From positions 62,001 through 126,000 of the forward strand of contig NW_003314273.1 of assembly GCF_000143415.4 (NCBI RefSeq): 64,000 bases of DNA. The letters are read 5' to 3'. Positions 2,795 through 60,959 of this stretch are shown here, in pieces (positions within the stretch are counted from its first letter, which is position 1; each line of letters starts with the position of its first letter). The notes beneath the pieces are model-generated. The model did no database searches, was not told where the DNA came from, and was given only the letters and a program-made list of their open reading frames with translations. The position numbers were made by a program, and so were the translations under genes. This DNA comes from Selaginella moellendorffii (lineage: Eukaryota > Plantae > Lycopodiophyta).

Positions 2795-4516
2795 TCACGG
2801 CTTACTTTGCAAGCTGAAGCCACCGGGCTCTCCATCGCTCATCTCGGCAAAGCGGCTCGGTCCTTCGCTGATTCTCGGGGAGCTTACTTTCTCTTTGGAT
2901 GCGCTCTTGCTCTTGAGGAGGCCGGCTGGAGTGGCCTGGTAGTTGTTCACGATGCCTTTGTAGAGACTGAACGCGGTCGCCAGCATGCTCGACGGGTCAC
3001 CGACATTGTTTGGCAAAAGCATGGTTGTCCCCTGTGACAAAGTATAGATAAACAAGCTATCAAATGGAAACGAGATCGTTTTACCTCTTTGGCGATCTTC
3101 CCAAACTCTCTCAAGTAGTGCTCGGCAACTCGGAGTGACACGGCCTGCAATAGCATCGCGAGATTGGTAGGAGAATGCGAAGGATAAAAAGAGAGAAGAA
3201 ACTGGATGGTTTTACCTCAGCGCCGCCAGCGGCGGTGATAGCAGCAGCAAGCGTTTGAATGGCTGCAGCCTCTCCTTGGGACTCTAGAATCTTGGCATTC
3301 CTCACACCATCGGCTCTGTTGATATTGGATTGCATTTCACCTGCATGAGAGAAGAAACGAAAGAGGAAGTTAAGTTCTTGGTTGCGAGTGTTTCGTACCT
3401 TCAGACTCCAGAATTTGCGCCCTCTTCCTACGCTCGGCCTCGGCTTGCATTTCCATTGCCGCTTTTATGCCGGGAGGAGGTGAGATGTCCCCTACAAAAG
3501 CCAGGATGGAAATAAAATCACTCGGATGCTCTCAAACTCACTGATCTCGTAGCGAAGACACTCCAGGCCCCAGTCGTTCGCAGCGAGATTGATCGATTTC
3601 TGCAATGGAAAACAAAACAATAAAAAGTGGTAACTTGAAAGCATTTTCACTCACTCACCACAATATTTTCATTCAGCGCGGCTCGCTCTTCGAAGGTCTT
3701 GTCCAGTGTCAGCTTCCCGAGCTCGCTCCTCATTGTCGTCTGCGCAAGCTGGACGACCGTGGAGACAACGTTCCCGACGCCATACGACGCCTTCTTCGGG
3801 TCCACGATCTGCCAATCCAAAGCGCCAAACCATTAGAACAATAGACAATCTTAAAACACTGAAAACTCTCAAAAGCAGAACGAAAGAAAGAAATAGCCAT
3901 TGTCCAAACACATGGCAAAGGAAAACCAGGAAAAGAAGAGCTTAACTCTCCAAAGAACGAAGAGCAGCTCACGAAAGCTCTAAAAAAGACACAAAATCGA
4001 AGAGAAGACTCATGCTACAAGAAGAAAGAAGAAAGAGAAGTGCTTGCCTTGATGTAGAGCACTCCATCCACACTGATGCTCACATTGTCACGGGTCACCG
4101 CAGTCTGGTGGTAGATCGGGATGGCCTCCTCTTTGAGCGAGTGGACATACGCAATGCGATCCACCAGAGGTATCATGATGTGAAACCCAGACTCCAGTGT
4201 CTTCAAGTATCTCCCAAATCGCTCCACAACGTAGGCTTTCTTCTCTGGAACGATCCGGATGCCCCAGTTCGTCGGAGGCCTGCTCGCAAACCTTTTGCAT
4301 TAGTAGAAGAGATGATCTTCCAAGAAAGCAATGCGGGGAAAATACCTCATATCATCGGAGTACCTCTCATTGCTCAAATTCCTGCGCGACAGAGAGAGCT
4401 AAGCGCAAGAAACGATCCACCGGGACGACAGGATCTTACCTGACAGAGATGGCGCGCGGGGTGACTTTGCGGAGCTCGCCCAGGCGCATCAGCGATCGTC
4501 TTGCCGCCATAGCCAT
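2795..4516 (-). CDS. Stomatin-like protein (SPFH/band-7, SLP2-like, probably mitochondrial), multi-exon
   Basis: [82 protein letters not shown] and [10 protein letters not shown] are SPFH/SLP2 hallmarks. Arg-rich N-terminus [12 protein letters not shown]. Confidence 0.9.
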
Positions 4517-4593
4517 GCCCTAAGTGTGTGTAAGTTCATTACATGCTAGCCTCCTTAAGTACTCTTTAAAATTTTCTTTGCCGCGAAGACAAC

Positions 4594-17053: not shown

Positions 17054-17133
17054 TGTAAGGAACTAACTCCCCGAGGTGTGAAAAGCTAAAGGATCCCCGA
17101 AAGTATAACCAAAATGATAAAGAGTTCATTAGA

Positions 17134-17300
17134 TGAGACCAAGTCCAAGATTGAGTTTGAGACCGACTCTAAGACCGAGTTCGAGACCGAGTTTGAAACC
17201 GAGTTTGAGACCGAGTCCAAGACTGAGTTCGAGATCAAGTCTGAGATTCGAGATTGGGTCCAAGACCGAGATTGAGTTCGAAATTGAGTCCAACGAGTAC
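17134..17300. repeat. Degenerate 12-bp tandem array (GAGTTCGAGACC-like) in the family B LTR
   Basis: Repeating gaccgagt(t/c)(c/t)ga units; encodes RPSP/RPSL repeats. Confidence 0.85.
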
Positions 17301-17312
17301 GCGGGCCGATTT

Positions 17313-17412
17313 NNNNNNNNNNNNNNNNNNNNNNNNNNNNNNNNNNNNNNNNNNNNNNNNNNNNNNNNNNNNNNNNNNNNNNNNNNNNNNNNNNNNNNNN
17401 NNNNNNNNNNNN
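17313..17412. other. Assembly gap (100 N)
   Basis: Run of N between the tandem array and a poly-G tract. Confidence 1.
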
Positions 17413-20400
17413 TTGGGGGGGGGGGGGGCTACAGGGGGTTCCAAAAAGTATAGTAGGGATAGTGAGGTTCAGTAATTAGTCTTGAAGGAAATCTCCAGTG
17501 GTGCTTCCAAATTGACTTGAGGTTGAGATTGGGGCTAAGGGGCCTTAGGTGGGAGTGAGCATGGACTCAGGTGATGCCAAAAGGGCCACCCAAGGAAGTG
17601 CTCAAGAGTAGCTCCCACTCCTAAAAGGAAAACCAACTGTTGTGTGCTCCTGGCTCATGTAGAGTGGTGCCCCACTTGAGTACCTTTGTGACTCATTGGT
17701 CCTCACTTTTCCTAGGGGCTTGGGCCTTCCCTTCGGGATGGAAATGGGGGAGTAGGGGTACTTATACTGGGCCATTAGGCCACAATGTTTCCCCTTGGTG
17801 TCCCGAAGCAAGTGTTGCATCCAAGGCTTGGGATTTAGAGGGTCCCATGATCAAGTTTTATTGTACTAAGGGATGTTAAAAATTTGGAGGCTTAGCGTGC
17901 TTGGCTGCTTGTGCTTGTAGGGAGTGTAGCCAAACCTTAAATCTAGTCTAACCTGAGGAGGGGGATTGAGAGAGATTTGGGAATTCGTGGATGGATGGTT
18001 AATGCTCCATTGCTCGTATAGTGAGTAACTGAAACCAAGTAGGACCAAGTAAGAGCTGGTACAATATGTAAAAATCTTGGCGAGGGAACTTAATTAGGGC
18101 TAAGGTAGTGTTGGTCGAATAGACGAGGTAAACTGGCAAATTGGAAAGGAAAAATTTATGGCTTACAATTTAGTATTGGAGTTTTTTCCTCAGTTCTAGC
18201 GAAGGATAAAGGCAGATTGTTGGGAGATGGCAAGGTAGGGTATAAAAGAACTAAAGTGAAGATGGAACTGTTGGGGGAAGGAGGGGCGCTTCCCCCAACG
18301 CTCGCTCAAACACAAGAAATGCTTTACTGCTCTCCACAAAATGCCCCCCCTCGCCCTTGTGAGGCAAAGGTTTTATACAAGGAAGATGGGGAATATTCTG
18401 AGGACCAGAATATTCCCTCTCTCTCTCTCACTCTCCCAGTGGCCACGCCCTAACATGCGACCACGATGGATCGCACTGGCTCTAGACACGCAAGAACCCT
18501 TCGAAGAGTGTAGAGTGTGCCTCTGCTACTGATGCCAAGTGCTGGTAGCTGCGTGAAATAGTAGAAACTGTAGAAAACAAAGTGGAAAAGAAAGAAAAGA
18601 GGTAGGTGTGAAGTTTGGAGACGGGGAGGAAAACCCGGTGGGAAACCCTATAGTCAAACTGGATCTTGAAGGTGAAGAAAAGGTGTAGAAAAAGTGTGAA
18701 AAGAGGAGGAAAATAGAGGAAGAAAAAGGTGTGAGTACCCAAAGAACTTAACCCATACCTGGATTTCGGCTCAGAAAAGTGTAATATGCAAATGCAGCCT
18801 CTTGATGACTTCCGGTATGCTCCAAGGATTGGCCGAAATCAAGAAAGAAAGAGGTAGAAGAGGGGATGTGTTGCCCAAGGGTGGTAAGTGTGGAAATGAT
18901 GAAAGATGGAGTGATATGGTGGAGCACCGAGATGGTGGTGGCACTCTAAAGTGGTAGCCATTGATAACCATTGGCCCGTAGAGTAAGCACTGGCCACTCG
19001 GAGTAGCCGGTAACTGGTAACTGGTAGCCAGGTACCTATAACCTGTAACCGGTAACCACCTGCTCTCGCTCCTACTCTTGTGCCAGCTCCAGCACCGATA
19101 TGGTGGAGTAATATGGTGGAGCACTAAGATGGTGGTGGCACTCTGAGAAGGTGGCTAGTCTGATGTGTCGGACTGAAGAAGTCAGCAGCTGAAAAAGATG
19201 TCATAGTCACTAGGTTGCCGGCAAAGGGAGGTGGCATGTGTCCACTGAGTGTTGGAGCAGAAGAAAGTGGCTTTGGCTTCTATGGCCTCGCCTAAAGATC
19301 CACCTAGGTGCCTTGAGTGAATAGGTTCACCTGGTTGGAAGAAAGTTGCTCCAGAAAAGCTAGTGCGTCGTCGGCAAATGGTCGTTAGGACATCTCGGAA
19401 ACGGCACATCCAAATGAGGAGGTGTCTTTTGCTGCTGGTGCATGTATGTGCATCCGTGGTATGGTGTAAATGTGACCTCAAACGGAGATGTGAATGATGG
19501 TGAAAGAATGAAAGATGCAAGACGGGCATCTAGAGATAAGTGCGGGCAACGCTGTTGGAAGTGATTGGTGATGGAACTGTGAGTGTAGATGATATGGAAT
19601 GAGTGTGGGAAATGTGCAGGGTATAGTAATGATAAAGGAAGGGCCAAAGAACCTGGAACATAGACCGAGCCAAGCGAGGAACCTCCATACAAACGGCAAT
19701 GCAGCCTGAGCACAAAATCCAAGGCATGGGCCACGGTCCAATGGAGAAACACCCTCTGAAAGTAAGAAAGTAGCCATGAAAGTAAAGTGAAAGAAAGGAA
19801 GAAAATGAAGAAGAAGAAGAAGAGAAGAGGAACGCCTCACCGGATGAAGCGTTTGAGATGAGAGTGGTTGTGAGCATGTGGGAGCTCACGTCCATCCGCA
19901 TCAACTAGCATATATGCTCCGCCTCCGATGTGTCGCTGGACAAAGTAGGGGCCGGTCCAGCGAGGGGAGAACTTCAAAGATGGCGTGAACTCCTTGAGTA
20001 GAACGAGATCGCCATCCTCGAATGGTTCGGCAGACTGCTGGTGATCGATGACTGACTTAATCTTCTGCTTGCCTCGAAGGAGATGTTTAGACGTGGATTG
20101 TCGCTGTTCTTCCAAGGCAAGAACCTCCAAGTCACGTGCATGAAGCTTGTCTTCATCGCTAAGCTGCATCGCTGCTGCGTATCGAAGTGAAAGTGAGAGT
20201 GATGGCACCTGGATCTCTACTGGAAGTACGGCCTCTATCCCATAGACAAGGGAAAATGGGGTCGCAGAGATGGATGTCTTGAAGGATGTCTGAAAGGCCC
20301 ACAATGCCGTAACCAAGTGCTCATGCCAATGCCTTGGGTGATCCTCCACAAGCTTTGAGATGACTGTCTTCAATATCTTGTTGCTGGACTCTGCCTGGCC

Positions 20401-31380: not shown

Positions 31381-32118
31381 TCTTAAATATAAAGATATTT
31401 AATTTCTTTATAGTTTACACAAAGTTAAAGGTGATGTGTAATTTAAAGTATTTTTGTGTAAATATAAACTCCAAGCTAATTTAGAAATTTAGAAATTGAA
31501 TTATTAGCATCTTTTATGTATATATCTGAATGATATATTAATATAAATATATAAAGCTAAGATTATTAGGCAATAAAATTTTAAACTAATAAATATGAAA
31601 ACAATAGCAATTCATTACAAAAGGCTTTACCATATATATATGTATGCACATTTGAGGTAATAAAAAGTTTATATTGACAAAGAAATATATAAAGTTTCTA
31701 AATTATGAAATGTTATAATTTAGGCAAGAATTAATCTTTAAAAGAACATTCAGCAATGAATAAAAAATTCCTCGAGTGTTTGTTTAATCAAATAGTAACA
31801 AAGTTTTAGCTTCTCATTACTATTTCTATACTTTTAGTTTATAGTTTTTTATGTAAATTTGTAAAACATATTTCTAAACAGAAGCTTCCATAAAAACACA
31901 CACACACACACACAGAGATTAAGAGAGATTAACAATGCAAGTGTTGATGTTGTAGAAGGCAGTAAAAAATCGCCAAAATTTCTGGAGCAAGAACCCCGAA
32001 GGACCGTCTAGATTTTCTAGAAAATGTCAGAGACGTTATTTATTTGAAGTACTTTTTATTGTTTACTCATCGAGATGATGAATCGATAACAGCATCTATC
32101 TTGAAAACCGTCCGTGTT

Positions 32119-32857
32119 TTAGGCAGCCCGGGTAGCATGCTTCCTGTAACGCTCAAGGAATTCAGCAACCTTGTCATCGCTTGGAGTGGATATCTTGATC
32201 ACGTCCACGGAATTTACAGCGTCCACCCACTTGTAGAGATTGGGCCATTCTTCCGGGCCTGGAAGCACGAATCCTCCTACTTTCTGGTAGGATTTGAAAC
32301 AGCAGATGAATGGAGCCAGAGCAACATCTGCAAAGTTCATAGCATCACCGCCAAAGAAAGGCTTGCCTGGAGCGATGGTGCCGAGAGCTTCATCGATTTT
32401 CATCAGAGCCCACTTGAAGTCCTTGCCAGCTTTCTTGTGCTCCTCCCCCATAGCTCGTATGAGTCGGCTCCCGGCGTCATAGAGCTGTTGGTAAGGAAAA
32501 CTCTGGTATTGATCAACCCGGAAGAAGCAACAAGTTTACCTTTTTGTCACCAAAGTCTGCCCAGAAGCGAGCCACAGCCTTTTCGTATGGATCTTCCGGG
32601 AGGAGCTTGTGAGAACCGGGCCACACACTGTCAATGTAGTCGACGATGACGAGAGACTCGCAGATAGGCTTGCCGTTGTGGATGAGAACCGGAATCTTCG
32701 TGTAGATTGGATTTGCCTCGAGAAGCTCCTTGCTCTTGTTGGGTAAACTCTCCTCCTGGTAATCGTAGGACACCCCTTTCAGATCCAGCGCATAGTGGAC
32801 TCTCAAGCCAAACACACTCGGCCAGAAGTTCAAGAGCTTCACACTGTCTTTGGACAT
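32119..32857 (-). CDS. Tau-class glutathione S-transferase 1 (intron 32485-32539, 55 nt)
   Basis: FWPSVFGLRV (catalytic Ser), NKSKELLEANPIYTKIPVLIHNGKPICESLVIVDYID, ARFWADF and FFGGD; single intron typical of GSTU. Confidence 0.95.
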
Positions 32858-33334
32858 GGCTGCTACTCGCACAAAAGAGAAACTCAGAAAATACAAGGCA
32901 CAACGTACCAGCGAGCCGGTGGATGTTCGTTAAGGCACCTTAGAACCTTGGTTTCTTTTCCTTGTACTACACACGCAGGACTGGCGAGCGGCAAGTACCA
33001 CTGCCGCCACAAATCGCCCACCAAAATCAGCGAGAGGCGTCCATCAAGAGCAGCAGCACTACAGGGCAGCAGAGTTGCGATCACGGTCGGTAGATTAACT
33101 CGAAGGTTGTCAACTTCAGAGGAAAGAAAGAAAAAAAGAGCACAGATCATTCAGGTATAAATCAAAGAGACTGACAATTTCTGTTGTGGAGACGGGTTCC
33201 AAGTGATGAATTTGAGAGAGGAGTGTTGTACCACCACATCTAACTCGTTTTTATGGGTTTTGGATCACAACTGTACAATAAAAATGGCAAGTTCTTGGGC
33301 AAATTAAAATAAAAATTGATTACTTTCAAAAGAT

Positions 33335-34149: not shown

Positions 34150-34459
34150 AACCAATGATATTAATTGTTAAAAAGTCTTAACTACCATATGATTTACTTG
34201 TTTAACTATTTAGGGCTAAAATAACAAACTTTTCATTTTAATATTAAAAGGGTTAAGAGAATCTAAATTATAAATTAGAATAAATTGCCAATATTTGACT
34301 CGCATGCAAGAACCTTTTTGGTAAGTATTGAATGTTGAGATTCAAACTTCTATCAAGCCTTTGCAACAAATGGATATCAGGTTATATATAGCAGTTCTTC
34401 TTTATTCAAAGAAGTATCTACATATATACATCGAGATTTCAAGTTTGGCACATCCTACT

Positions 34460-34683
34460 TTATGTAGACCCAATAGCTCACTTCCTGATAACCTCGGCAA
34501 ATCTAGCAACCTTGTCTGGGCTTGGAGTGGATTTCCTGATTGCTTCTATAAACTTAATAGTGCTTACCCACTTGTGGAATTCTTTTGGGCCCAAAAGCAT
34601 GAATCCTCCCACTTTCTGGTAGTCTTTTAACTAGTAGATGAATGGAGCTAGAGCAACATTTGCAAAGTTCATAGCATTGCCGC
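34460..34683 (-). pseudogene. Tau GST pseudogene (3' part of exon 2), truncated by an LTR
   Basis: AMNFANVALAPFIY* and the downstream sequence are homologous to the 44954-45681 gene, including its 3' flank. Confidence 0.85.
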
Positions 34684-40079: not shown

Positions 40080-41761
40080 TGTGAGACACAAAATCCCTAG
40101 GCCCCAAAGTGGAGCCGGAAGGGCGCCACATGGTAGTGGCCGAAGCGAGCGCCAAACGAGCGTAACACGTTTGGACCAAAAGCTCCGACTTGAAAAGTCA
40201 AGAGCGGGAGTGGAACTCCCAACGAAGTGCTCGAGGAACGAGCACGAAGCGAGCAAAAGGCGAGGGTCCAAAAAGGGACCCAAAAGGACAAACACATGAC
40301 ACGTGGGAGTCCGAGATGGAGTCCGAAGTGGAGTCCGAGGTGGACCCGAGATGGACCCGAGTTGGAGTCCGAAGTGGAGTCCGAGATGGACCTGAGATGG
40401 AGTCCGAGATGGAGTCCAAGATGGAGTCCGAGATGGACCCGAGATGGAGTCCGAGATGGACCCGAGATGGAGTCCGAGATGGAGTCCGAGATGGACCCGA
40501 GATGGAGTCCGAGATGGAGTCCGAGATGGAGTCCGAGATGGAGTCCGAGATGGACCCGAGATGGAGTCCGAGATGGAGTCCGAGATGGAGTCCGAGATGG
40601 ACCCGAGATGGAGTCCGAGATGGAACCGGGACTGAGATCAAGTCCGAGGCCGAATCCGAAGTCGGATCCGAAATCGGATCCGAGATCGAGCCAGAGACTA
40701 AGTCCAAATACTAATACGGGTCAAGGGGTGAAAGCCCAAAGCGTGCGTCTCCCAGGGGGGGGGGGCTGCGGGGGGTTCCAAAAGTATAGTAGGGAGAGTA
40801 TGGGGGTTGGAGCCCAGTTGGAGCCAGTTGGAGCCAGTTGGGCCAGGAAGGGCCAGTTTGGCCCAGGAAGGGCCAGTTTGGTCCAGGAAGGCCAGACCCA
40901 GTGTTGGGTGATGAGCTGACCACTGGGAAGTCCAAGACTAGAGTGAACACGGACCGACAAGCGGGGTAGCTTGGTGAAGTGTTCAAGAGCCGGCTCTAGT
41001 TCCCCCGGGAGATCGACTGGCCGATGCTCCCAGTCCAAGTGTGGGTGGCACTACCTACTTGGATACCAGGCGTGGCTCAACGGAACCTCGCTCTAAGCCC
41101 ATGGCTAGAGCACCCAAGGGTAGAAGGCGAGGAGAGTACCCAAGTGGCTCGCGTAAGGCCACGGTGTTCCGAAATGTTGTCCCAAAGGCCCAGACTGTGG
41201 AAAGGAAGAGGAGCAGTCCTCTGGGGTAGTGACCAAGGACACAGTCGTGTGGTGAGGAAGTCCCAGAGGACCGTGGGACTTAGTGGTCGGGCCTGTGGGT
41301 CTCGATCCAGTGGCAGTGTTGGCAAACACGGCCAGGGGCAGAAAGGGACTTAGTGGGGACTGACAGAGGGATATTGGGGAAGGCTATTCCCCTTGTCGGT
41401 GGGCATCCTAAGGATGCTAAGGAGTGGATCTGAGATGACCACTCACGGATGGTTTGCCTAGTCTTGGAGAGCCAAGACGGTGATGCAAGTGGTATTGGAC
41501 TACCAGTGTGGCAAAGGTGATTGGGCATGGCCTTAGCGTAACGGGCTGCGATGTCGGTGGTACCTTTGAGTGTCGGTCATGGGATCGGACACGTGGAGCA
41601 CTTGGACCAAGTGCAAATGTTGAGTGGCATGGATGCCATTCTCGGGGCTAGCAAGTCCCAAGTCCTGGATTGGACTTATGGAGGTTGTGAATGAGACTCC
41701 TCCAAGTGGTCGGAGGTGTGGTTAAGTGACTAAAGTAGAATGGAAAATTTAGTCGCTTACA
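40080..41761 (+). mobile_element. Young GC-rich solo LTR, family C (1682 bp)
   Basis: TG..CA termini with perfect 5-bp TSD CCCGT. Orientation taken from the PBS next to the homologous copy at 55280. Confidence 0.9.
40307..40625. repeat. Minisatellite of interspersed 12-bp GAGTCCGAGATG and 11-bp GACCCGAGATG units
   Basis: Directly visible; source of the ESEM/WSPR/DGVR repeat ORFs. Confidence 0.97.
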
Positions 41762-44953: not shown

Positions 44954-45681
44954 ATGTCGAAAGGGAGTGCCAAGGTCTTGAGCTTCTGGTCGAGCATGTT
45001 TGGCTTGAGAGTTCACTATGCGCTGGATCTGAAAGGGGTGTCCTACGAATACCAGGAGGAGAATTTGTTCAACAAGAGCAAGGAGCTTCTCGAGGCAAAT
45101 CCAATCTACGCTAAGATTCCGGTTCTCATCCACAACGGCAAGCCTATCTGCGAGTCTCTCATCATCGTCGACTACATCGACAGTGTGTGGCCCAATCCTC
45201 ACAAGCTCCTCCCGGAAGATCCATACAAAAAGGCTGTGGCTCGCTTCTGGGCAGACTTTGGTGACAGAAAGGTAAACTTGTCGCTTCTTCCAGTGTTTCT
45301 TACTACCAACAGGTCTATGACGCCGGTAGCCGACTCATACGAGCTACCACCGAGGAGGAGCGCAAAAAAGCCAGCGAGGACTTGAAGTGGGCTCTGATGA
45401 AACTCGATGAAGCTCTCGACACCATCGCACCAGGCAAGCCTTTTTTTGGCGGCGACTCAATGAACTTTGCAGACGTTGCTCTGGCTCCATTCATCTGCTG
45501 GTTCAAAGGCTACCAGAAAGTGGGAGGATTCGTGCTTCCAGGCCCGGAAGAATTGCCCAATCTCCACAAGTGGGTGAACGCCGTAAAGTCCGTGGAAGCG
45601 ATCAGGAAATCCACTCCAAGCCTAGACAAGGTTGCTGAATTCGCCGAGGTTATCAGGAAGCGAGCTATCGGGTCTGCATAA
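44954..45681 (+). CDS. Tau-class glutathione S-transferase 2 (intron 45272-45312, 41 nt)
   Basis: Close paralog of 32119-32857; FWSSMFGLRV; spliced frame intact to TAA. Confidence 0.9.
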
Positions 45682-46094: not shown

Positions 46095-46499
46095 CTGCAA
46101 AGATCAGAGTCACGCGCCATTCGTGAGACTGTCGAGAGAAGAAATGCTTGTATACTAAGTGATGCCCTCCCGTTAAACACCATCCTGATTCACTCTCTCT
46201 CCGCTTACCTGGCGGTGATGTGGCATCAGGCCTTCTTTTTGTTTTTTCTCCAGTGCACTCCCTCTCCCATCTGTAGCAGCTGCGCACTCCCGCCCGCGGC
46301 TATCGCCTGCCTGCGGCTATCCCCACCCACCCGCTCGCCCTCACGGAGCGTGTGCCTTAATTACTTCCACATGGCCACAGCCCCAACACTTAGCCAACAC
46401 AGCCCCAACACTTAGCCAAATTTCAATCAGCGCGCACGTGGACACCTTTCTATGTGCTTTACGTGGCCAATGAGTGTCATGGATGACCATTAGGAGTGG

Positions 46500-47960
46500 T
46501 GCACTAATTTAAATATATACAATGTAAGTATATAAAGAGTTTGTCCTTTTATTTATTCTTTGCTAAGATTGAGTTTTTTGTTTAAAGAGTTTTTCTTTCT
46601 TGTCTTCCTTTGCCTAGTAAAAGGAGTTGCTTCTTGACTACTAGAAGCTTTTCTTTTACCTGTAATTCTTTCCACCAAAGGTTTTGCTTGCTTCAAGGAT
46701 GTACCGTAATTATCAATGTGCTGTTGAAATTCTACTATAAGATGAATAAGATCATTTAGCCTAGTTTTAAAGGTTGCAACCTTTTATTGTATTATTTCTA
46801 AATTGTTATCAACCATAAATAAAAAAACTTCTTCATCAGGAAGATTTTATAAGATATCCATCATTTTTTGCTATAATGTTGCTTTTGTAACTTTTGATAG
46901 AGTGATATCTTCTTGCTCAAAGTTCATATCAATATTTAAAATTTGTTTAGTGTAAATTACCTTTATAGTAGTCCTTAGCAATATTATCATTATAAAAAGT
47001 TGTGTGAATTGAATGATACATAATATTTCTGAGACGTTTCCATATTTCCATCTTAATATCCCAAGATTTCACCTTATGAACAATATGTTTAAGCCAATTC
47101 CTCCTTACATGCCAAATACATAATAAAATTTGAAAATCAAGTGTAGCTCTATATAAAAGAAAAAAATTAAATTATATCATATCAAATTAATTACTTTATA
47201 GCATTAATCTTTGCTTCAGCATCATTAATCATTATTGCATGTGGTTTCCAATTTGGCATGTGTTCTAAAACTCATTTTTTAGGAGTTATCATCCAATTCT
47301 TCATATATTCTCCTTTCTTACTAAAAGTTAAAACCCATGCAATTGGAATACCATTTCCATGATAATCAAAAGCAAGGATGGTATATAATGGAAATTGTAA
47401 ATTTTTAAATATTATTCACTTAAAAATAAATGAAAATTTTACCTTGTAGCAATTAGTTCCAAAAGTTGCATAAAGACTCAATAAAATATTATTTGCAAAG
47501 TCTACGATCTTTTGTAATTGCCAAGTTGTCTGAATCTCAATGGTAAAATAATCTTTACTTTGATCACCTTCTTGATAGAAAAATACTTCGGGATTTGTGT
47601 TCTTCCAAATACGTACACTTTGTGCGTCATTTTCATGTAGTCAATAAGTTGAAAGCAAATACTTCCTACACAGATTGTTAATATCCTGTATAGTTAAAAA
47701 ATCATCTTGACGAGGAGGTTCACTAGCTGACTTGTTCCTTCCCACAATGTGTATATGCTCATTATAAATCTGATTTGATGTGAAATCTTGCTAGATTATA
47801 TAAATCATCCAATGTCAAATATCTGCTAAAAGCTTCTGAGGAAATAATGGCTTTCCTCCAGTCGAATCAAGTTGACCATGACAAAGAATCCCACTTTTAT
47901 CACAATGCTCTCTATGATAATATGTAATCTGGACATAATCAAGCCATTTGTAAAACTATT
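46500..47960 (-). mobile_element. Decayed Mutator-like (MULE) transposase remnant
   Basis: FTIEIQTTWQLQK...YATFGTNCYK|FPLYTILAFDYHGNGIPIAWVL matches the MULE DDE pattern D.TF.TN.Y..PL....D....G.P.AW; boundaries approximate. Confidence 0.75.
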
Positions 47961-49916
47961 CATCCCCCTTATCGGTTGAACAAAAAAGAACTCAAGGAGC
48001 TCAAACGCTAACTTGAGGAGTTGGTAGGAAAAATGTATGGTTGAGCAAGTCATAATATGGTGCATTGGTGTTATTTGAGAAGAAGAAAGATGGATTTATA
48101 TGTATGTGCATAGACTATCAATTGCTCAACAAATATATAAAGAAGAATAAATACCCTTTATCAATGATTGAGGACATATTCGATAGGTTAGGAAAGGCAA
48201 AATACTTTTCGAGGATCGACATAAGGTCAAGATACTACCAAATCAAGGTAGCAAAAGAAGATGTCGAGAAGACAAGTTATCAGACAAAGTATGAAAACTT
48301 TGAGTTTTTAGTGATGCCTTTTGTGTTGTGCAATGCAGTAGTAATGTTTTTAGTGCTAATGAGCCACATTTTTGTACCCTATCTGGATCATTTTGTGGTC
48401 GTCTACATTGACAACATCTTGATCTATAGTGAGATGCTAAAGGAGCATGCCGAACACTTAATGAAAGTGTTTGAGAAATTAAAGAAACACTAGTTATATG
48501 CTAAAGAGAGTAAATATGACTTTGCTCAACAAGAGGTAAAGTTTTTCGGGCATATAGTGGGCAAGGATAGGTTCAAGGTGGATCCTAAGAAGGTCCAAGC
48601 GATCCAAGAATGGGAATAACTATCAAATATACATGAGTTAAGGGCATTCTTGGGGTTATGCAACTACTACTGAAAGTTTATTAAACACTATTCAAGAGTA
48701 GCCTTGCCTTTAACGGACCAAACGGGAAAAGGAAAAATGGTATGGATAGTGGAATGCGAGGCAACATTTGTCCACCTCAAAGAGAAGTTGGGAACAGCTT
48801 CTATGTTGGCATTACTAGACTTTGATAAGGACTTTGAGGTAAAAACGGATGCTTCAAACTTTGCATTGGGTGCAATTTTGAAGCAAAACAACCATTTAGT
48901 AATGTTCTTTTCAAAGAAGTTAAATAAGGCTTAGCAAAAGTTGCCTACCCATGAGAAGGAATTGTTTTCAGTGGTTAAAGCACTCAAGGAGAGGCAACAC
49001 TACCTTGGGAGACACTTCAAAGTTTACACGGATAATATGGCAACGAAACACTTCTTATCACAGCCCGACCTGAGAGGGAAATAGGGTCGGTGGGCCAATG
49101 CTTTGGCCAAGTTTGATTGCGAGATTTTATATAAACTTGAGAAAAACAACATTGTGGTGGATGCTCTAAGTTGAAAAGCAAGCTTGAAGTTGGCGATATC
49201 TAGTGCGATAACAACCTTTTGGGATGATGTGCGGATAACGTATAAGAACGATGGTGTAGCACAAGAACTGTTGCTAAGGAACCAAGAGGTGCGGGAAGCT
49301 TACTAGAGAGGTGAGCTGCTAATGAAAGAGAAAACAGATTATGTGGAACGCAATGAACTTATATATTATAAACAAATGAAGGTGTATATTCAAGAAGGGG
49401 AACTAAGGAAGGTAACTTGAGAAGAGTGTCATGATAAACCTCTTGCAGGACATAGTAGAGTGCCTAAGATGATGGGTTTACTTAAAAGGAAGTATCATTG
49501 GCTAGATATGGCTAAGGATATCCAAGACTATGTAAAGACATGTCTAACATGTTAGTAGGTCAAAGCTATGACTGAGGCTAGTGGGGACTTGTTACAAAGC
49601 ATTCTAATTCCAGATTGTCTGTAGAAATGTTTTACAATAGACTTCATCACAGAACTCCCCCAAAGCGAGGGGTTTGATGTGTAGTTCGTGGTGGTGGACT
49701 GGTTTTTGAAGATGGCACATTTTATACCCACCACAACAGAAGTGGATGTGGAAGGTGTGGCAAAGTTGTTCTTTGAGCAAGTGGTTCAAGTGCAGGGAAG
49801 GCCAGAAAAGATTATTTCAAATCAAGATAAAATTTTCACCAGTAAGTTCTGGAGAACTCTTCTAGAACAGTATTGCACCAAGTTGAAATTTAGCACAATC
49901 TATCACCCACATACAG

Positions 49917-49963
49917 GTATTGGGTATTAAGTCAAGTTTGAGGGCACTAACACTTCTTGACAG
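49917..49963 (+). other. Putative spliceosomal intron 1 in integrase (47 nt)
   Basis: GTATTG...CACTAAC...TTGACAG; removal restores ACA G|AT GGA CAA ACT GAA = T-D-G-Q-T-E. Confidence 0.85.
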
Positions 49964-50380
49964 ATGGACAAACTGAAAGGGTGAATAAGTAGCTAGAGGA
50001 TTATTTGCGATTTAATGTCTCCTGATACCAGACTGATTGGGTAAATCATTTGGGACTTGCAAAAATGTGCTATAACAACTCACCATATTCGAGTATTAGG
50101 GTGAGTTTATGGGAAGTCATCAATGGGCGAGCTATTGAAGGTCTTGTGGAACTCGGCGTGACCGAGTATCATGGAGAGTTATTCACAATGAAGACATTCA
50201 TAGCGGAAAGACTCAACATTTGGAATCTAGTGAGGGATTCCTTAGAACAGGCTTAACAAAAGCAAACCAAGTATACAAACCAGAAGCTCAAGATATAGAG
50301 TTCCAACCTGAGGAAAAGGTGTAATTGAACACCAAGAACCTAAGGCTACCAAGTGGGATTAGCCGAAAGCTGACCCAAAG

Positions 50381-50432
50381 GTAAAAATGCATGTATTTCT
50401 AGAAATGAACTGATCTTGAGTTCTTTAAGCAG
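50381..50432 (+). other. Putative spliceosomal intron 2 in integrase (52 nt)
   Basis: GTAAAA...AACTGAT...TTTAAGCAG; removal restores CAA AG|G TTT GCG GGG CCT TAC = Q-R-F-A-G-P-Y. Confidence 0.85.
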
Positions 50433-51099
50433 GTTTGCGGGGCCTTACGAGATTGAGGCACAAATTGGTAAGGTGGTTTATTGCCTTTGACTTCCTCAAG
50501 AGATGGGGAAGATGCACTATGTGTTTCATTTGAACTTACTCAAGTCGTACTTTAAGGATCCGCTTCATAAGGACTAAATAAGACTTTTACCTAAGGTTAT
50601 TTAAGGGGAAGAGGAATACGAAGTCGAAGCCATCCTTAATGCATGCAAAAGCAAGCAATAAGGATGCGAGGTAAGGGAGTTCCATATGAAGTGGAAAGGA
50701 TTTCCATACTGTGAAGTAACATGGGAACCGAAAGAGAATTTAGCGAATGCATGAGACCTAGTGGAGGAATTTTTGCAAGGTAAAACTCTATGTACTTATG
50801 CAAAATTCAATTAAAGAATTTATTTAAGGAATTGAGCAATATCATATGTTGGGACCTGAAGGCACACCAAAAGTAAGCTAATTAGTATGGGTTAGCTAGG
50901 TTGACCATATGTAGGAAACTATGCCTAACTCCCCACGGGGATGTTGAATCCATAGACGTATTTTACGGAGGTTGGATTCGAGTTTCGACCCTCTAGTAAG
51001 CAAGGCTGGGTTCAAGTCCCAACCCCATATTAAGAGTGGTGAGGGGAGGGGTATAGGGACACCTATATTCCGTTGTCATGGGCTTTGGCCGAGAAGGCT

Positions 51100-51392
51100 A
51101 ACTTACCACTAGAGAATTCCTTCAAGAGTGGTTTCTAGACTTCACTATCCCTACTATACTTTTGGAACCCCTTACACTCCCCCCCCCCTCCCCCTAGGAG
51201 ACACACACGTATCTCGAACTCGGTCTCACACTCAGTCTCGGACTTGATTTCGAACATGGTCTCGAACTCGGTCTTAGAGTCAATTTCAGACTCAATCTTG
51301 GACTCAATCTCATCTAATGAACTCTTTATCATTTTGGTCGTGCTTTCGGGGATCCTTTACCTTTTGACATCTCGGGAAGTTGGTTCCTTATA
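51100..51392 (-). mobile_element. Family B LTR fragment with degenerate 12-bp array and G-tract
   Basis: Reverse complement of ~17054-17500; preceded on - by the purine-rich GGGTGGTGGAAT. Confidence 0.8.
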
Positions 51393-51399
51393 ATTCCAC

Positions 51400-54300
51400 C
51401 ACCCATAGAAAAAGATGGATGCCCACATTAAACACCTCTTTTTAATTTTACAACTTGTCGACCATGTCTCCGGGGGCATCCCCCACTTAGCAACTTTCTA
51501 ATTTAGAGTCTCATTAGATCATTAGTGGTAGTTTTTTATTTTTGTTCATTTAATTTTTTCTAAACCCATTAGAGACACTTTCTCTATTTCAATTTAACTT
51601 CTCATTCTGGAGTAGTCTTGGCCTTTACCAACATTACTATCACATTCTAAAACTTTAATATTAACATCTTGAGTGAATTTCCTAGGTATATCCAATATCT
51701 TGCATTGCACTAATTATGTAAATACCACTTCCCTACCCTAGGAAGTTTTTTACTTGAGGGCACCATCATCCTTTCTTTTATTACATGCCACCCTTGGCAC
51801 TAAGTTCCATTTATTCATAATTTGTACTAAAGCCATCTATGACCTTATCATTTGATTATTTTGCTGTTCCCTCCCCTGGAGCTTTCACTTTCACGAAATT
51901 GAAATATTTGAGAATCCATCTTTGGAAAAAAAAAAAATTTCTACAATCCGTTAGCATCCAACACTTGAGTGTTCTTTGTATAACTTTGCCATTTGGATTT
52001 CTTCCAATGGTTCCATAGCATATTTTTGGCCATTGATCTTTTGCTCTTATCTTTTGATTGTTGCATAAAGTAACATAAAATCATTACCTCTATCCTTAAA
52101 GTATCCTTTTGGTTTCATAGCAAAAGCTTTATTTTACCAAATTCAAAAGGTGTTCACCCCTAATAAGTCTCTTTATCATTTTTTATTGTGTGTCTATCCA
52201 CGACCCAAATTTGTGACCCTCCTATGGGTCTTTCTTAGAAACTACTTCCTTGGACTTACAATATCATTACATTGTCATAGATCATTTCCTTTATATGTCC
52301 TTTCCACTTATCACTATGATCCATTACCAATAGTTTAAATTAACACTTTGAATTAGGAACTTTATTCTTTAACCTTACAAAGACTTTATCCTTATTTAGC
52401 CATAAGATTATATAGTGATCTAACCTTAACACTTTAATAGGTTGTTAATAGGTACTAGGTCTTCTAGACCTTTAAGTTGTTGACCATAACCTCGAGGGCA
52501 TCCCCTACACTTAGTAGTGTGCCCAAGCCAACCCTTTTAGGAAAAGGGTTTATAGCAATTGAGTTTGGGTGTCCCAATCTCATTCACTACGTTTTTTGTG
52601 CTATTTATACCAAAGTGTTCAAATTAAATATGTCAAACTTTCACACTAAGTAATCTAACTATGCATCATGACTTCGAGGCATCCCTTGCTTGGTGTGTGC
52701 CCAAGCTAGCCTCCATACTAAGAGTCCATAACCATCACCAAATGAGTGTCTTCATATTCCAAATTATCACTATACCCTAGTGAGTTGGGACTTGAACTCA
52801 AACACTAGAGAGCTAGGATTCAAACTTAACCTCCACATATATATATTTATGGGTGGCATCACCAAGGATGCTTAGTGTGACTCCCCATGTTGGTGCATTA
52901 ACCTGTATCTAAAGCACGTTATAGATCACAATTTAAGAACTTAGTTCCTCCGAATTACAAAGTCCTCTTACTTGACAAATCTGTGATTATGCATGAACTC
53001 CTCATGCTTGGCCCCATACACCTTCAAATAGGGTCTTTGTTCCCCTAACTTGCCAATCTCACTTAACAAGTCGATCAGTGTAATATGGTTTTATGCATAA
53101 GTATGTAAGTCCTCAACCATTGACTTTTGTTCAAAGCCATCACTTTGAACACTTGGGAACTACTTTCTCAATTTTGATAGCCTCGCCTCATGGCAAATTT
53201 CAAAACCATATTTCTACTGTGCCACTCTGATTTTGTGCGTTACTATAAACCATTTACACTTATCTTTTTAGCTACTAACCTATTTAAAATTATCTTTAAG
53301 AACCTTGAAGGGACTTTGTTCTTTAGTTTGCTAAGGCATTTCCTTTTGCAAGCTTTGTAATTGTTATATAGTTTAACATAGACAATTTTATACTTTAAAC
53401 TCTCTATGGCATCATAGTTGCTAGTAACAACACCTTCGAGCACTTATTTGATTTTTCACTCATAACTTGTATAACCACTATTAGCTATTTCTGACAATTT
53501 CTGTAGTTTGATTTTATCCTTTTATTACTTGTTTTTAGCATTACATGTTCACTTTAGCTATTTTCCTCCCAACTTCTTAGGGTAGCTTACCATTCCTTAG
53601 CAAATATTCTTAGAGATGAACCTACTTAATGATTTAGGGAGTGGTTTTTTAAACTGAATATGCTCATCATGTAATCCTACACACCAGGATTAATATCGCT
53701 ATACATAGGCCTCTTTATGCCCATTGCTAGCTATGATAAAATTATTTTGGCTTTATCCACTTTTGATAGTCAAATTTACTTTGTCTTTAGCTTTTGTTAA
53801 CCTTGGATATTGGATAGCACCTTCTATCCATTCTTCTTTAGAGACTTTGTCCTCTGGGCCTTATCTAATGCCCCTGTAACACTTAAACACCACCTCTTTG
53901 GTGTTTTAAAAAGTGCTTATATATTTCCTTGATGGACTTCCTTAGCATTAAGTATTTCCTATTGATATTGAAACATAAGCATATAACATCCCTTAAGGGA
54001 TGTATTTAACCTTCTTCTTATCCAACTAAAAAGTCTTTGTGGAAGTTAGTTTCCACTTTTCCAACAAATCATTCCCAACCTTTGTTTAGTTGCTTCATAA
54101 GTATCATGTCCTACAATTCATTGTTGGTGCTTTTGTGCCTTTATCAATACTCAATACAAACACATGAATACAAACATACAAATGCCAACCCCATTTCCAT
54201 TGGGGTTCCCTAGGCAAAGGGTTCTTATGAACTTATTAACTTGACCTCAAGACATCATCCCTTGCGACACTTGGGTTTTTCACCCTATTGACTCAATGAG

Positions 54301-56192
54301 CTTACTCTCATGACACTTCTCACTTGTGTCTAAGTTTTGTCAAAACTAAAGCAATCATTTTTTATACCAACTATTGATTAGCATTGCTTTATATTGTTTA
54401 CATACAACTCTACACCAAAGTTGCTTTTTTCTGGGAATACAAATAATATACAACTTTATACCAAAGTTACTTTTTTCTGGGAACACCTTTCCCATAATTT
54501 TAGTATGACATATTTTGGGATCAATGAGATATTCACTATTCTCATATTTAGATCTCATAATCCTTCGTAAAGTACAATACACTTTAATCCAAATGCTTCC
54601 ACCAATCCTTAAGACCATTCATTGACTAATTCCATAGGTCCTAGCCTTATGGCTACTTTTGAGGTGCTAGCTTGTTAGAATATCACTTCTTGTATTCTTG
54701 TCCTACTTACAAGGACTATATTTGCAAATGTTATTCTAACACTTGATTATTCTTTATTCCATATTGTCCTAATTATATTTGTTTACCACAACCATATTAG
54801 TTAGTTTGCTAAGTTAAATGTGTAAACTCCTGAATTTGGACCTCCCGGGAGATCACCCAACTTAGTACTATTCAAACCCAAGGATACTTAACCCCAAATA
54901 TCCCAAAACCTTTAACTAATTGGAAAAGAGGATGCATTTTTGTTCATAGGCCCTTTCCTTTTATATTGAACCCTTATGAATCGTTTTTCAAGTCATTCTC
55001 TTTAGTTGCTTACAAAATGCTCATTTGGATCACATTCTCAACTCTCTGAGAAAAACTTTATACTATTCCCAAAATCCCAAAGTCGTTCTTTTATTGGCCC
55101 TTTTCTATCCATCATATTACCTATATGTTCCGGTATAAACTAAAGTGGAGAGTCATACCATCTCAATATGCTACTTCTCGAAGATAGACCCACTCTTAGG
55201 GCCTTATGATGCCAATATGAGTGGTAATATACTCAAACACTAATAAGAGTTGGATTAAGGAATAGCTCTAATACTAAGTTATAAGTGACTAAATTTTCTA
55301 TTATATTTTAGTCACTTAATCACACTTTCGACCATTTGAAAAAGTTTCACTCACAACCTCCATAAGTTCTGAGTGCTTTATATATCTAATCTTATGATCA
55401 ACACCCCAAATATATTACCAACATATCAGCCTTTTATGCTAAAGTTATGTCCATTTACTTTTGTCTTATTGGTAGTCCTAAACCACCCATGCCATAATCT
55501 CATCTCTCAAAGACTAAGCCATCTGTCCATGAGTGGTCATTCCAAAACCACTCCTTAACATCTTTAGGATGCCTAAAGATATAAAGAATAACATTCTCTA
55601 ACATCCTTGTTTTGGTCCCATTAAATCTTTCTCCATCCCTAATCATGTTCACCAACACTACCATTGGGTTAGGGTCCGAATGCCTAACCACTACATCCTA
55701 TTGACCTTTAGGACTTTTTTGCCATATGACTACATCCTTGGTCACTACACAAGAGGATTATTCCTTTTTATTTCCACAATTTAGGATTTTGAGATAACAT
55801 TTTGAAACACCATGGACCTATATAAGCCTTATGAATACTCTCCCCACTTTTTGCCTTTGGGTGCTCTAGCCATGTGGGTAGAATGAGGTTTTGATAAGCC
55901 ATACCAAGTATCCAAATAGATAGTCCCACCTACACTTGGATTGGGAGTATCAACCATTTAATCTCCCAAAAGAGCTAAAATTGACTCTTGAACACTTCAC
56001 TAAGTTACCCCACTTGTCCATCTATATTCACTTCAATTTTGGACTCTTCAGTGGTTATATCATCCCCGCTCTCAATTTTCCATGTTGAAGCTTTTGATCT
56101 AAATATGTTATACTTGTTAGACTTCCATTTTGACTATTACCATGTGGCATTCTTTCAGCTCCACTTTGGGGCACAAGGATTTGTGTCTCATA
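51400..56192 (-). mobile_element. Old, heavily decayed LTR element: family C LTR 55280-56192, degenerate Met PBS ~55265-55276, unrecognisable internal region
   Basis: LTR is collinear with the reverse complement of 40080-41761 (with deletions); TAGTATTAGAGC is a decayed TGGTATCAGAGC; assignment of the internal region is inferred. Confidence 0.65.
54821..55014 (-). mobile_element. 194-bp solo LTR carrying a 5S rRNA fragment (Cassandra-like)
   Basis: TG..CA termini, 5-bp TSD AAATG. 54838-54892 on - reads GTTAAGTATCCTTGGGTTTGAATAGTACTAAGTTGGGTGATCTCCCGGGAGGTCC, similar to the 5S A-box/IE/C-box region. Confidence 0.88.
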
Positions 56193-57545: not shown

Positions 57546-60500
57546 TCACTCGGGTGAATTGCAAATCGAGGAGTGTTGTTGCTGTTGTTGTTGTTGCTGG
57601 CAGCACGAGGTCTCCTTCCTCCGGGGCATCGCCTCAGACAGCATTGTCACCACGTCGCGCATGGAGGGTCTCTCGCGGGGGAGTTTGCTCGTGCACAGCA
57701 GCGCAATCCGAAGCACCAAAACCATCTCTTCCTCCACCGATGACCCCGGGGCCGCGATGCTCGGGTCCAAGACGCTGTTCGAGACCTTGTGACTAGCCGG
57801 ATTGTTGCTGGTGGTGTTGCACTGGAGGATCTTGAGACGAACCCACTCGACAATGTTGACGTTGTCTCCAAACTCGGGCTCCACGGGACGCTTGCCTGTG
57901 AGGAGCTCGAGGAGAACCACGCCGAAGCTGTAGACGTCGCCCCTCTCGTCCACTCGCATCGTGTACGCATACTCTAGAAAAGGAAAGAACTAAAGGTTAG
58001 ATTTCAGAAAAAAATGCCTTGTTTAGGCATTTGCTGCAAACATAGCAGTTCTCCAGTAAAACATTCAACAGGAGCAAACATCTTTACAACCAGAAACTAT
58101 TTCAACAACACAAACATCTTCTACATGTATCCAACGCATGAATCTGGAAACGTCACAAACAAAACAATGTCCCGCTAGCAAACAATCATAGCAATCCATA
58201 TACCCAAAGAGGGCATAGCAAGAAAACGAAGCAAACTTAGAGCAAAGATCTTTCTCCTTACCTGGAGGAATGTAGCCATACGATCCGGCAACGACGGACA
58301 TGGGCTGATCGCTACACTCGACAAGCTTGGCTACCCCAAAGTCCGCCACCCGAGCCTCCATATCTGCATCGAGCAAGATGTTACTCGACTTCACGTCCCG
58401 GTGGACGATCTGCGGGAAGCAGTCATGGTGGAGGTAGCACAGCCCCTGTGCGATGCCCACCGCCACCTTGTACCGCGCGACCCAGTCCGCCAGCACGCTC
58501 CCGGCCTTCCCATGCAGCGCGTCACTCAGGCTCCCATTGGGCATGTACTCGTAGATGAGGAGGCTCGTGTCCCCGTTGGAGCAGTAGCCGAGCAGCCGGA
58601 CGATGTTGCGGTGCCGGATGCCGCCCAGGAGGTTCACCTCGGCCAGGAAGCCGCGCTGTACGTGGCCTGCGGTATCCTTCCTCGCGCTCGTGTTGAGCTT
58701 CTTTACCGCCAGGACCTCGCCGTTCTTCATCTCGGCCTTGTACACGGTCCCGGCGGCGCCCTTGCCGACGACGTTGCTGTCCGTGAGGCACTCGAGCACG
58801 TCGAAGGAAGTGTAGCCCAGCCGCTGGAACGCCGTGAGCTTCCACTCCAAGAGATTGAGATGGAGGTCGTGATCGCCTCCTTGCTTCTGCTGCTGCTGCT
58901 GCTTGATCGTGGCGATGGTGCCGCAGATCCACCGCCAGGAGATCGCCAAGACGCCCACGCTCGTCGCCACCACCAGCGCGATGATCCAGCCCAGCGTCTT
59001 CCCGTTGAGCCGGCTGTCCGGCCCCGGGGCGGCGGAGTCCGAGAAGAAGTCCGAGCCGCCGGCAGTACATGGCCGTTGCTCGGACAGTATACCGCCGCAC
59101 AGCCCCGGGTTGCCCGAGAAGGAGCTCGGGTTCTCCGTCCGGAAGATGCCCAGCGTGGGCATCTGGCCTGAGAGCTCGTTCTGGGACACATTGAAGCTCT
59201 CGAGAGTGTCCGATTCCTCGAGCACGCGAGGGATCGCGCCCGTGAGCTGATTCCGCGAGAGATCCACCGTAGCCAGCACTGGAAGCTCTGCTATGGCGCG
59301 CGGTATCTCCCCTGACAGCCGGTTACCGCTCAGGTCCACCGCAATCATCCTCTTGCAACCCGCGATCTCCTCCGGGATCGTCCCGGATAGGGCGTTGTCC
59401 GAGAGATCGAGCTTCTGCAAGCTCATAGCCTCGCCGATACCGCGCGGTATGACGCCGGACAGCCCGTTGCCGGCGAGGAAGAGCTCCTGGAGCTGCGGTA
59501 CTGTAAAGAGCCGCGGCGGTATACCGCCCGAGAGCCGGTTACCCGAGAGGTCGATCGAGGAGAGCAGCGGCGCGTCGGCGAGGGCGTCTGGGATCTCGCC
59601 CGAGAGGAGATTGTCCGCGAGCTCGAGCTTGTTGAGGCCGCGCATGGATCCAAACTCGCGCGGCACGGGGCCGGAGAGGCGGTTCTCGTGGAGCCGGACG
59701 CGCACGAGCTGCGAGCAATTGGAGAGATCCGGGATGGAGCCCGTGAGGCGATTCGCGAAGAACTCGAGCTTGACGAGTGATCCGCCGCGGCAGATCCCGT
59801 CGGGGATGGGGCCGGAGAGGCGATTGGAGGAAGCATCGATCCAGACGAGGCCTGGCGAGGATCCCAGCCCCGGCGGCAGCGATCCCGTGAAGGAGTTCGT
59901 GAAGATCTTGAGCACCTGGAGGCTGGGGAGGTCGCCGATGAATCGCGGCAGTGGGCCGGAGAGATCGTTGATCATGAGGTTGAGCAGCGTGAGGCGGTGG
60001 AGCGCCGCGAAGGAATCCGGGATTGGGCCGGAGAGGCTGTTGTTGCTAAGATCCAGGGACATGAGCTCGCCCATGGCGCCCATGGAGGAGGGCAAGGGCC
60101 CCGAGAGCCTGTTCTGGAAGAGGAAGGTCGTGTTGCAACGCGAGAGATTGCCGATGCTGGGAGGGATCGCGCCGGAGAGATTGCATCGTTCCAGGCTGAG
60201 GTAGCGGAGCTCGCCAAGATCGCCGATGGAGTCCGGGATCCTGCCCGAGAGGAAGGGATTGTAGCTCAGCTGGAGTACCTGGAGCGCCGAGAGCTTGCCG
60301 ATGGAGGCCGGGATCTCGCCCGTGAGGGCATTGCCCGAGAGGCGGAGCAATCGCAGGGATTGCAAGGCCGTGAGCTCGCCAGGGATCGCGCCATCAAAGT
60401 AGCTCCCGCCGAGATCCAGGTGCTCCAGCGCGCTCGCGCCGCCGAGAGCCGGGGGGATCGCGCCCGAGAAATTGTTGTTGTAGGCGCGGAGGAATCGCAG

Positions 60501-60959
60501 GCGCGGCAGCGATCCAAGCCCTGGCGGGAGCTCGCCCGAGAAGAGATTGACGGCGATGTCCAGCACGGTGAGATTGGAGAGCTCGGCGATGGCAGGGGGC
60601 AAGGGACCCGAGAGGGCGTTGTCCGAGAGATTGAGGAAGGAGAGGGAGGAGAGGCGGCCGAGGTGGGAGGAGAGCGATCCGGAGAGGTTCTTGGAGTGGA
60701 GATCGAGCGAGGTCACGGGGCCGGCGGCGGTGGAGCAAGTGACGCCGCTCCATTGGCAGTGGCTGGCGGCGACGCCGCTAGAGGGATCCGACCACCAGTC
60801 TTGGAGGAGCTTGGCCGGGTCCATGGATTCCGCCAGGGACTTGAGGATGGAGGCCTCGTCGGTTGGATCGTCCGCGCGCGCTGGCAGGAGGAGGATCGAG
60901 AATGCCATCGCCAAGAGCACATTGTCTTGGATGTGATTCTTCTTCTTCTTCTTCTCCAT
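57546..60959 (-). CDS. LRR receptor-like kinase, subclass XI, PXY/TDR-like (intron 57974-58261)
   Basis: Signal peptide, HCQWSGVTC cap, ~21 LRRs, SSFSGNPGLCG, TM helix, WKLTAFQRL juxtamembrane motif, kinase HRDVKSSN/DFG/GYIPPEY; single conserved kinase intron. Confidence 0.92.

Follow-up and report, generated by a model that had tools for sequence, protein, structure and literature searches.

Intron loss is the classic proof that an LTR element has copied itself through RNA. A 2025 review names Ogre and EVADE as notable plant exceptions (PMC12786077). Ogre, a Ty3/gypsy element, retains a family-wide intron through retrotransposition (PMC6317226, PMC12786077), and its RT-RH-INT expression depends on splicing, which takes the intron out of some of the transcripts so that the complete polyprotein can be translated (PMC6317226). 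In BARE1 and the Arabidopsis copia element EVD, spliced and unspliced RNAs have different fates (PMC3735527, PMC5580714), splicing there removing coding capacity to leave Gag alone, and BARE maintains separate RNA pools, of which the packaged one is uncapped and non-polyadenylated (PMC3735527). Penelope-like elements also keep introns after retrotransposition; they use a non-LTR mechanism, have, in the text available, no DDE integrase, and carry their characterised introns mostly in the 5' UTR (PMC8557442). A gypsy-like integrase with a GPY/F motif interrupted by 1-4 GT-AG introns is known from Ginger1 (PMC2836005). However, Ginger1 is a DNA transposon with terminal inverted repeats and, as far as it is described there, no RT, and without an RNA intermediate its introns are no paradox.

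Here we describe a decayed LTR element whose integrase is interrupted by two short putative introns, in a 64,000-nt stretch of Selaginella moellendorffii DNA (the window, whose coordinates are used throughout). The element would resemble Ogre in retaining family-wide introns, but these are two minimal introns inside the integrase; RT could be made without splicing, which would then gate integration alone. Whereas splicing in BARE1 and EVD takes coding capacity away, here it would complete an enzyme. The preliminary description of the locus understated this precedent when it held that the splicing known in LTR elements separates domains, as both the splicing-dependent RT-RH-INT of Ogre (PMC6317226) and the separate BARE pools (PMC3735527) bear on the case.

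A chromovirus family of the same genome, SM1-Galahad, was described by Novikov et al. (2012) as having hundreds of copies, with none intact and no TSD in the available text (PMC3350952). Its consensus has a 3885-bp main ORF ending at the core integrase, followed by a short ORF of 316 bp and then one of 309 bp that encodes a class I chromodomain; the LTR is longer than 1 kb and contains a poly-G tract, and many copies have large deletions (PMC3350952). A sister family, SM2-Galahad, is intact, with a single ORF of 1577 aa, and is also present in hundreds of copies (PMC3350952). The available parts of that paper describe separate ORFs and never mention introns or splicing (PMC3350952).

A truncated chromovirus copy with an interrupted integrase

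The features of the element are collected in Table 1. The preliminary description had reported a contiguous RT-RH-INT-chromodomain pol, and the domain order is as it said. In the frame before intron 1 the Pfam models RVT_1, RT_RNaseH and Integrase_H2C2 score above the cut-off and rve below it, and after intron 2 SH3_Tf2-1 (2e-10) and Chromo (4e-13) are found. The element has the RT-RH-INT order of a Ty3/gypsy chromovirus and a polypurine tract followed by an LTR with putative ends. The chromodomain is C-terminal to the SH3/GPY module, and both are joined to the integrase core only if the RNA is spliced. The main frame stops in intron 1, a 317-nt frame runs from an ATG at 50065 to a stop in intron 2, across a frameshift present in this copy, and a 309-nt ATG-to-stop frame occupies 50503-50811 in exon 3.

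Table 1. Features of the element, with positions in window coordinates
Feature	Position	Strand	Remarks
pol exon 1	48056..49916	+	RT, RNase H, integrase HHCC zinc finger, first two-thirds of DDE core; 12 stops
Intron 1 (putative)	49917..49963	+	47 nt, phase 1, GT..CAG; immediately 5' of catalytic Glu
pol exon 2	49964..50380	+	catalytic Glu (codon at 49975), remaining integrase core, linker; 4 stops, one frameshift
Intron 2 (putative)	50381..50432	+	52 nt, phase 2, GT..CAG; within SH3/GPY module
pol exon 3	50433..50814	+	GPY motif, SH3_Tf2-1, chromodomain (about 50617-50775); 5 stops
Polypurine tract	51041..51051	+	from sequence
3' LTR	51052..51392	+	ends inferred (TA..TA); 3' end is CA in related copy
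Poly-C tract in 3' LTR	51179-51194	+	sense strand
12-nt tandem array in 3' LTR	51212-51315	+	

The pol is not intact, and in this respect the preliminary description did not hold. The window copy is dead and truncated. It has 21 in-frame stops and its reading frame shifts between 50289 and 50298; Asn replaces the second catalytic Asp, and gag, protease and the 5' LTR are absent. Five public sequencing runs of one organism contain part of the stretch; comparison with the family was made using contigs from four of them (X1-X4), representing at most two samples, aligned to 46300-51500. The element is truncated at its 5' side, starting near 47900, where family depth climbs (bin 47866-48039). The 3' LTR, of about 340 bp, is probably internally deleted; family contigs continue differently past 51189, as loose ends with extra LTR sequence. 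The CpG value is 0.43 in the window copy and 0.97 in host genes, and where family and window differ, the window has A/T and the family G/C in 69% of cases (390/569 in X1; 328/472 in X2). Such CpG depletion and A/T bias are characteristic of independent decay in a methylated copy. No terminal inverted repeats were found around the element, and the window holds no second integrase copy of its family.

Other pieces of LTR sequence occur in the window. One at 17054-17502 (- strand) is 82-85% like the 3' LTR of the element and ends in CA, with a 100-N assembly gap directly after its poly-C; it adjoins another RT gene, and no matching 5' end or TSD was found for it. A second repeat family, at 40082-41580 (- strand) and 55282-56190 (+ strand), has a probable LTR that shares only the poly-C and a longer 12-nt array and ends differently. 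This suggests an LTR module common to two repeat families.

Position, form and boundaries of the inserts

The two inserts have the coordinates, lengths and GT...CAG ends first recorded for them. As had also been noted, neither length is a multiple of three (47 nt is 3n+2 and 52 nt is 3n+1) and the first insert reads into a stop, a TAA at 49928. The second, for which no stop had been mentioned, reads immediately into a TAA at 50382, so that each insert places a stop in the upstream frame.

The boundaries were set by homology to 376 related proteins, independently of any splice signal. The end of exon 1 and the start of exon 2 lie exactly one residue apart in 265 of the 272 relatives in which both alignments were available, and exon 2 and exon 3 are likewise separated by one residue in 23 of 27 relatives. 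At each of the two junctions this single intervening residue is the split codon. With intron 1 removed, the distance from the second acidic position to the catalytic Glu is 35 codons, the spacing found in 212 of 213 motif-bearing relatives. The claim that exact removal restores the integrase motifs is borne out, since with both inserts excised the D-35-E spacing and GPY motif are those seen in relatives that lack introns. Programmed frameshifting was rejected as a way across the inserts. It would put 15-17 surplus residues into the D-35-E interval or the GPY module, and both frames that flank intron 1 run into stops within it.

The chance of GT..AG ends was estimated for a homology-fixed segment of 47 or 52 nt with five placements allowed for each. 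Such ends occur at 40 of 2644 positions for the 47-nt length (1.5%) and at 68 of 2644 for the 52-nt length (2.6%), a joint chance for the two inserts of ∼4e-4. Each insert is flanked by a 4-nt end repeat, ACAG for intron 1 and AGGT (AG/GT) at both ends of intron 2; short end repeats of this kind are typical of recently gained introns. The branch-point-like motifs of the preliminary description are present (in intron 1 CTAAC, 13 nt from the 3' end, and in intron 2 CTGAT, 19 nt from it) but are weak evidence, because only 7 of 18 host introns have a comparable motif 10-30 nt from their end. Neither insert sequence has a significant match elsewhere in the window. By their GT..YAG ends, host-like size and signals and restoration of the frame, both inserts are likely to be spliceosomal (U2) introns.

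Host introns and splice-site scores

The host introns used for comparison (n = 18) were read by eye in a kinesin gene, a stomatin-like gene and a GST gene, with open frames confirmed for the first two. They are 41-239 nt long with a median of 58 nt, and 15 of the 18 fall between 41 and 71 nt. The inserts, at 47 and 52 nt, are sized like these host introns, as the preliminary description held. Splice-site matrices were built from the same 18 introns, a small training set, and applied to the pol region. Intron 2 scores highly, its acceptor ranking first among 239 AG sites and its donor third among 155 GT sites. The scores of intron 1 are weaker (acceptor 15th of 239, donor 50th of 155) and still within the host leave-one-out range. 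A+T content gives no separation, being 0.60 and 0.69 in the introns and 0.61 in the pol exons.

The kinesin gene (1-2610, + strand), presumably of the kinesin-II type, has nine introns in view. The stomatin-like gene (2800-4520, - strand) has eight, including a GC-AG intron of 239 nt. The GST gene (44954-45681, + strand), a streptophyte GST that reads as tau-like, has a 41-nt intron at 45272-45312 and lies among inverted paralogous copies that are 83-92% alike (32117-32870 and about 34400-34683, - strand). A 964-aa intronless ORF with a 72-nt repeat spacing at 58065-60959 (- strand) is likely a leucine-rich-repeat receptor kinase. Five host ORFs of the window had no match in an exact-sequence collection.

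The inserts in other copies of the family

The element is highly repeated, as judged by contig depth, on a scale where low-depth records have a depth of 2-3. Intron 2 is spanned by contigs from all four runs: X1 record 8 covers 49980-50815 with one gap at depth 49, X2 record 14 covers 50296-50787 with no gaps at depth 48, and X3 record 21 and X4 record 29 each cover 50290-50600 with two gaps. Intron 1 is found in other copies, 84-87% alike to the window, in X1 record 7 (49719-49964) and X2 record 11 (49901-50118), and an X1 contig of depth 79.5 continues past 49965 for 28 letters on the upstream side, and so into intron 1 provided that the contig is collinear. Because no listed contig bridges intron 1 with at least 31 letters on both sides, family-wide presence is less directly shown for intron 1 than for intron 2.

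The best-supported rows (joints, 15 of 114; indels, 12 of 74; loose ends, 24 of 2122), from contigs that drop rare variants, show neither a skip or deletion of 47 or 52 nt nor an accumulation of loose ends at the boundaries. The intron-bearing form looks like the majority in the family, and rare intronless copies are possible. The stop at 49990 in exon 2 of the window copy is missing from most family contigs, by depth 100545 of 107970 in X3, and from all in X1 and X2. A 1-nt deletion at 50383, in the A run that starts intron 2, was present in 18 contigs of X3 and 24 of X4. Of the 12 indels shown for the 5.2-kb stretch it is the length variant with the greatest depth, which agrees with intron 2 tolerating changes in length, but the site is a homopolymer.

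The inserts are thus not private to one decayed copy, since high-depth family contigs cross intron 2 and other copies carry intron 1. That they are introns of spliceosomal type in a multi-copy family, as was first proposed, is supported by the contigs and, if the family is the same, by the three-ORF consensus of SM1-Galahad. A high-copy family carrying the inserts fits transmission through unspliced RNA. The other origin first offered, intron gain and later decay in one domesticated gene, finds no support, as the family has a high copy number, a polypurine tract and an LTR.

Relation to SM1-Galahad and searches for relatives

Both the window element and SM1-Galahad are high-copy chromoviruses with a class I chromodomain with chromo-box substitutions and a homopolymer G/C tract in the LTR, and the main frame of this frameshifted copy, which stops in intron 1, may correspond to the published main ORF that ends at the core integrase. 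The two short ORFs of the window, 317 and 309 nt, compare with the published 316 and 309 bp, the chromodomain ORF being an exact match in length, and the aromatic cage positions are present by reading. Adding exons 2 and 3 to the published 3885-bp ORF would give about 1556 aa, against the 1577 aa of SM2-Galahad. There are also differences, as the LTR of the window element is about 340 bp long against more than 1 kb, and its sense strand carries poly-C where poly-G was published. From this likeness in layout, rather than a sequence comparison, the window element is likely to be a copy of SM1-Galahad. It would then probably be a member of an already described family whose introns went unrecognised, and the many-copy consensus would independently show both breaks to be family-wide.

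In a tree of RT-RH-INT from 70 sequences, for which 69 of 156 full-length matches were retained, the window element groups with P0020 (Vitis) and P0115, an intronless contig ORF, with support of 0.97 and apart from other plant clades. We tentatively take P0020 to mark the Galadriel position, in a tree that contains no labelled reference. The Galadriel/Galahad clade is listed in a REXdb table with a tRNA-Met PBS and a TSD of 4-5 bp. With neither an intact copy nor a TSD in the available description (PMC3350952), SM1-Galahad can only be presumed to have transposed autonomously in recent times.

The protein collections yielded no close member of the family, the best identities being 46% (104 matches), 46% (2 matches), 56% (best 120 of 634 matches) and 42% (best 150). 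None of the 376 homologous proteins ends right after the HP-x-T motif with an intron-like tail; six stop within 25 residues past HP-x-T, and all six continue with the normal motif. Viral contigs yielded no relatives. Metagenome contigs yielded 18 distant loci of 36-51% identity, and the first junction motif, readable in nine of the 18, is uninterrupted in those nine. A search of the open literature, a scope that leaves subscription papers, Repbase and two large REXdb supplements outside, turned up no account of an LTR retrotransposon whose integrase contains introns. The family itself is probably known, whereas the reading of its breaks as introns, which would be a form of splicing-dependent pol expression, was not found in that literature.

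Splicing-gated integrase as a candidate mechanism

We favour, with some reserve, an account drawn from the sequence in which this high-copy Ty3/gypsy chromovirus, probably SM1-Galahad, would make full integrase only from spliced RNA and use unspliced RNA as the template for reverse transcription. By the sequence, unspliced RNA cannot encode an active integrase, since translation stops before the catalytic Glu. From the high copy number of a form with both introns and an inactive unspliced integrase, we infer that the family must have copied unspliced RNA, and that it either translated integrase from spliced RNA of its own or obtained the enzyme from a different family. Its own spliced RNA is favoured because two inserts of exact geometry are unlikely to become fixed in a dead gene, and because the downstream motifs are kept.

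In the splicing-gated account, unspliced RNA would give Gag-PR-RT-RH (gag and PR being taken from the published consensus rather than the window) and an inactive integrase cut before the catalytic Glu. An RNA without intron 1 would encode an active core, and one without either intron would encode the SH3/GPY module and the chromodomain in addition. The introns would persist if the packaged RNA were mostly unspliced, possibly as a separate pool like that reported for BARE. Intron 1, with its weaker signals, may be the rate-limiting gate that keeps integrase low. Both introns were probably gained at the DNA level in an ancestral copy, at AG/GT-like sites, leaving the 4-nt end repeats. By what is established for plants, an RNA of the element that kept intron 1 and lost intron 2 would have a splice junction ∼450 nt past its stop and would probably be subject to nonsense-mediated decay; one class of partial intron loss could be held down in this way.

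On the other side, spliced RNA would retain every cis signal, and intronless, fully autonomous copies should arise from it unless they are at a disadvantage in packaging or under selection. That such copies have not replaced the intron-bearing ones counts against the splicing-gated account, as do the mediocre intron 1 donor of the window copy (rank 50 of 155) and the description of SM1-Galahad with no intact copy and no TSD (PMC3350952). A stronger version, which we put forward tentatively and would not expect to hold in full, is that an autonomous lineage gained two integrase introns, retained both over hundreds of cycles of reverse transcription because unspliced RNA alone was packaged, and uses them as a two-step switch. 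Without splicing there would be no integration; with intron 1 out, the integrase would be active but lack the chromodomain; and with both out, it would be targeted to chromatin.

Alternative explanations

In the main rival account the integrase is borrowed. The inserts would then be intron-derived but spliced too rarely to matter, and the element, with its own Gag and RT, would depend on the integrase of an intronless sister such as SM2-Galahad. That sister is intact and single-ORF in the same genome, where no intact SM1-Galahad copy is described (PMC3350952), in-trans parasitism of BARE2 on BARE1 is on record (PMC3735527), and the donor of intron 1 is weak. However, two GT..YAG inserts at exact codon positions (∼4e-4) would scarcely become fixed without splicing of the first at least, the motifs of exons 2 and 3 are kept, and the family majority lacks the one listed exon-2 stop, so we consider such dependence unlikely, if worth serious attention. 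It is also conceivable, and rather improbable, that the introns are real and spliced but are tolerated passengers with no role in control, slow splicing leaving most packaged RNA intron-bearing and intronless copies being rare and without advantage. The host is intron-rich and its introns are very short, the end repeats are of the kind typical of recent intron gain, and rare intronless copies are compatible with the contig data. Against this, unspliced RNA gives no active integrase, so that the introns necessarily alter integrase supply, and the retention of two introns across hundreds of copies argues against their free loss.

Multiplication as DNA is another reading: introns gained in a genomic or domesticated pol copy would have spread by segmental duplication or by Ginger1-like DNA transposition. 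The 1-4 introns in the gypsy-like integrases of Ginger1 DNA transposons (PMC2836005) give this a model, no TSD appears in the available description of SM1-Galahad (PMC3350952), and the window copy lacks an LTR pair. But the element shows neither mark of Ginger1, absence of RT/RH and presence of terminal inverted repeats; its integrase shares a frame with RT and RNase H, downstream of which come a polypurine tract and an LTR, and further stretches of LTR occur in the window amid unrelated sequence. We regard spread as DNA as very improbable. Finally, ordinary insertions with chance GT..AG ends might mimic introns, the more so as the short end repeats permit several placements of both inserts and the pair was picked from many windows. 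With the ∼4e-4 joint chance already allowing for placements, and the intron 2 acceptor the best of 239 in the region, coincidence is scarcely credible.

Implications

If the splicing-gated reading is true, an integrase made only by splicing would be an unusual way to control integration. The integrase-core introns, if real, would be a natural reporter for how an LTR element chooses which RNA to package and which to translate, as each copy of the family records whether its template was spliced. They would also allow the gain of introns by a retroelement to be dated, and would account for the unusual arrangement of three ORFs described in SM1-Galahad.
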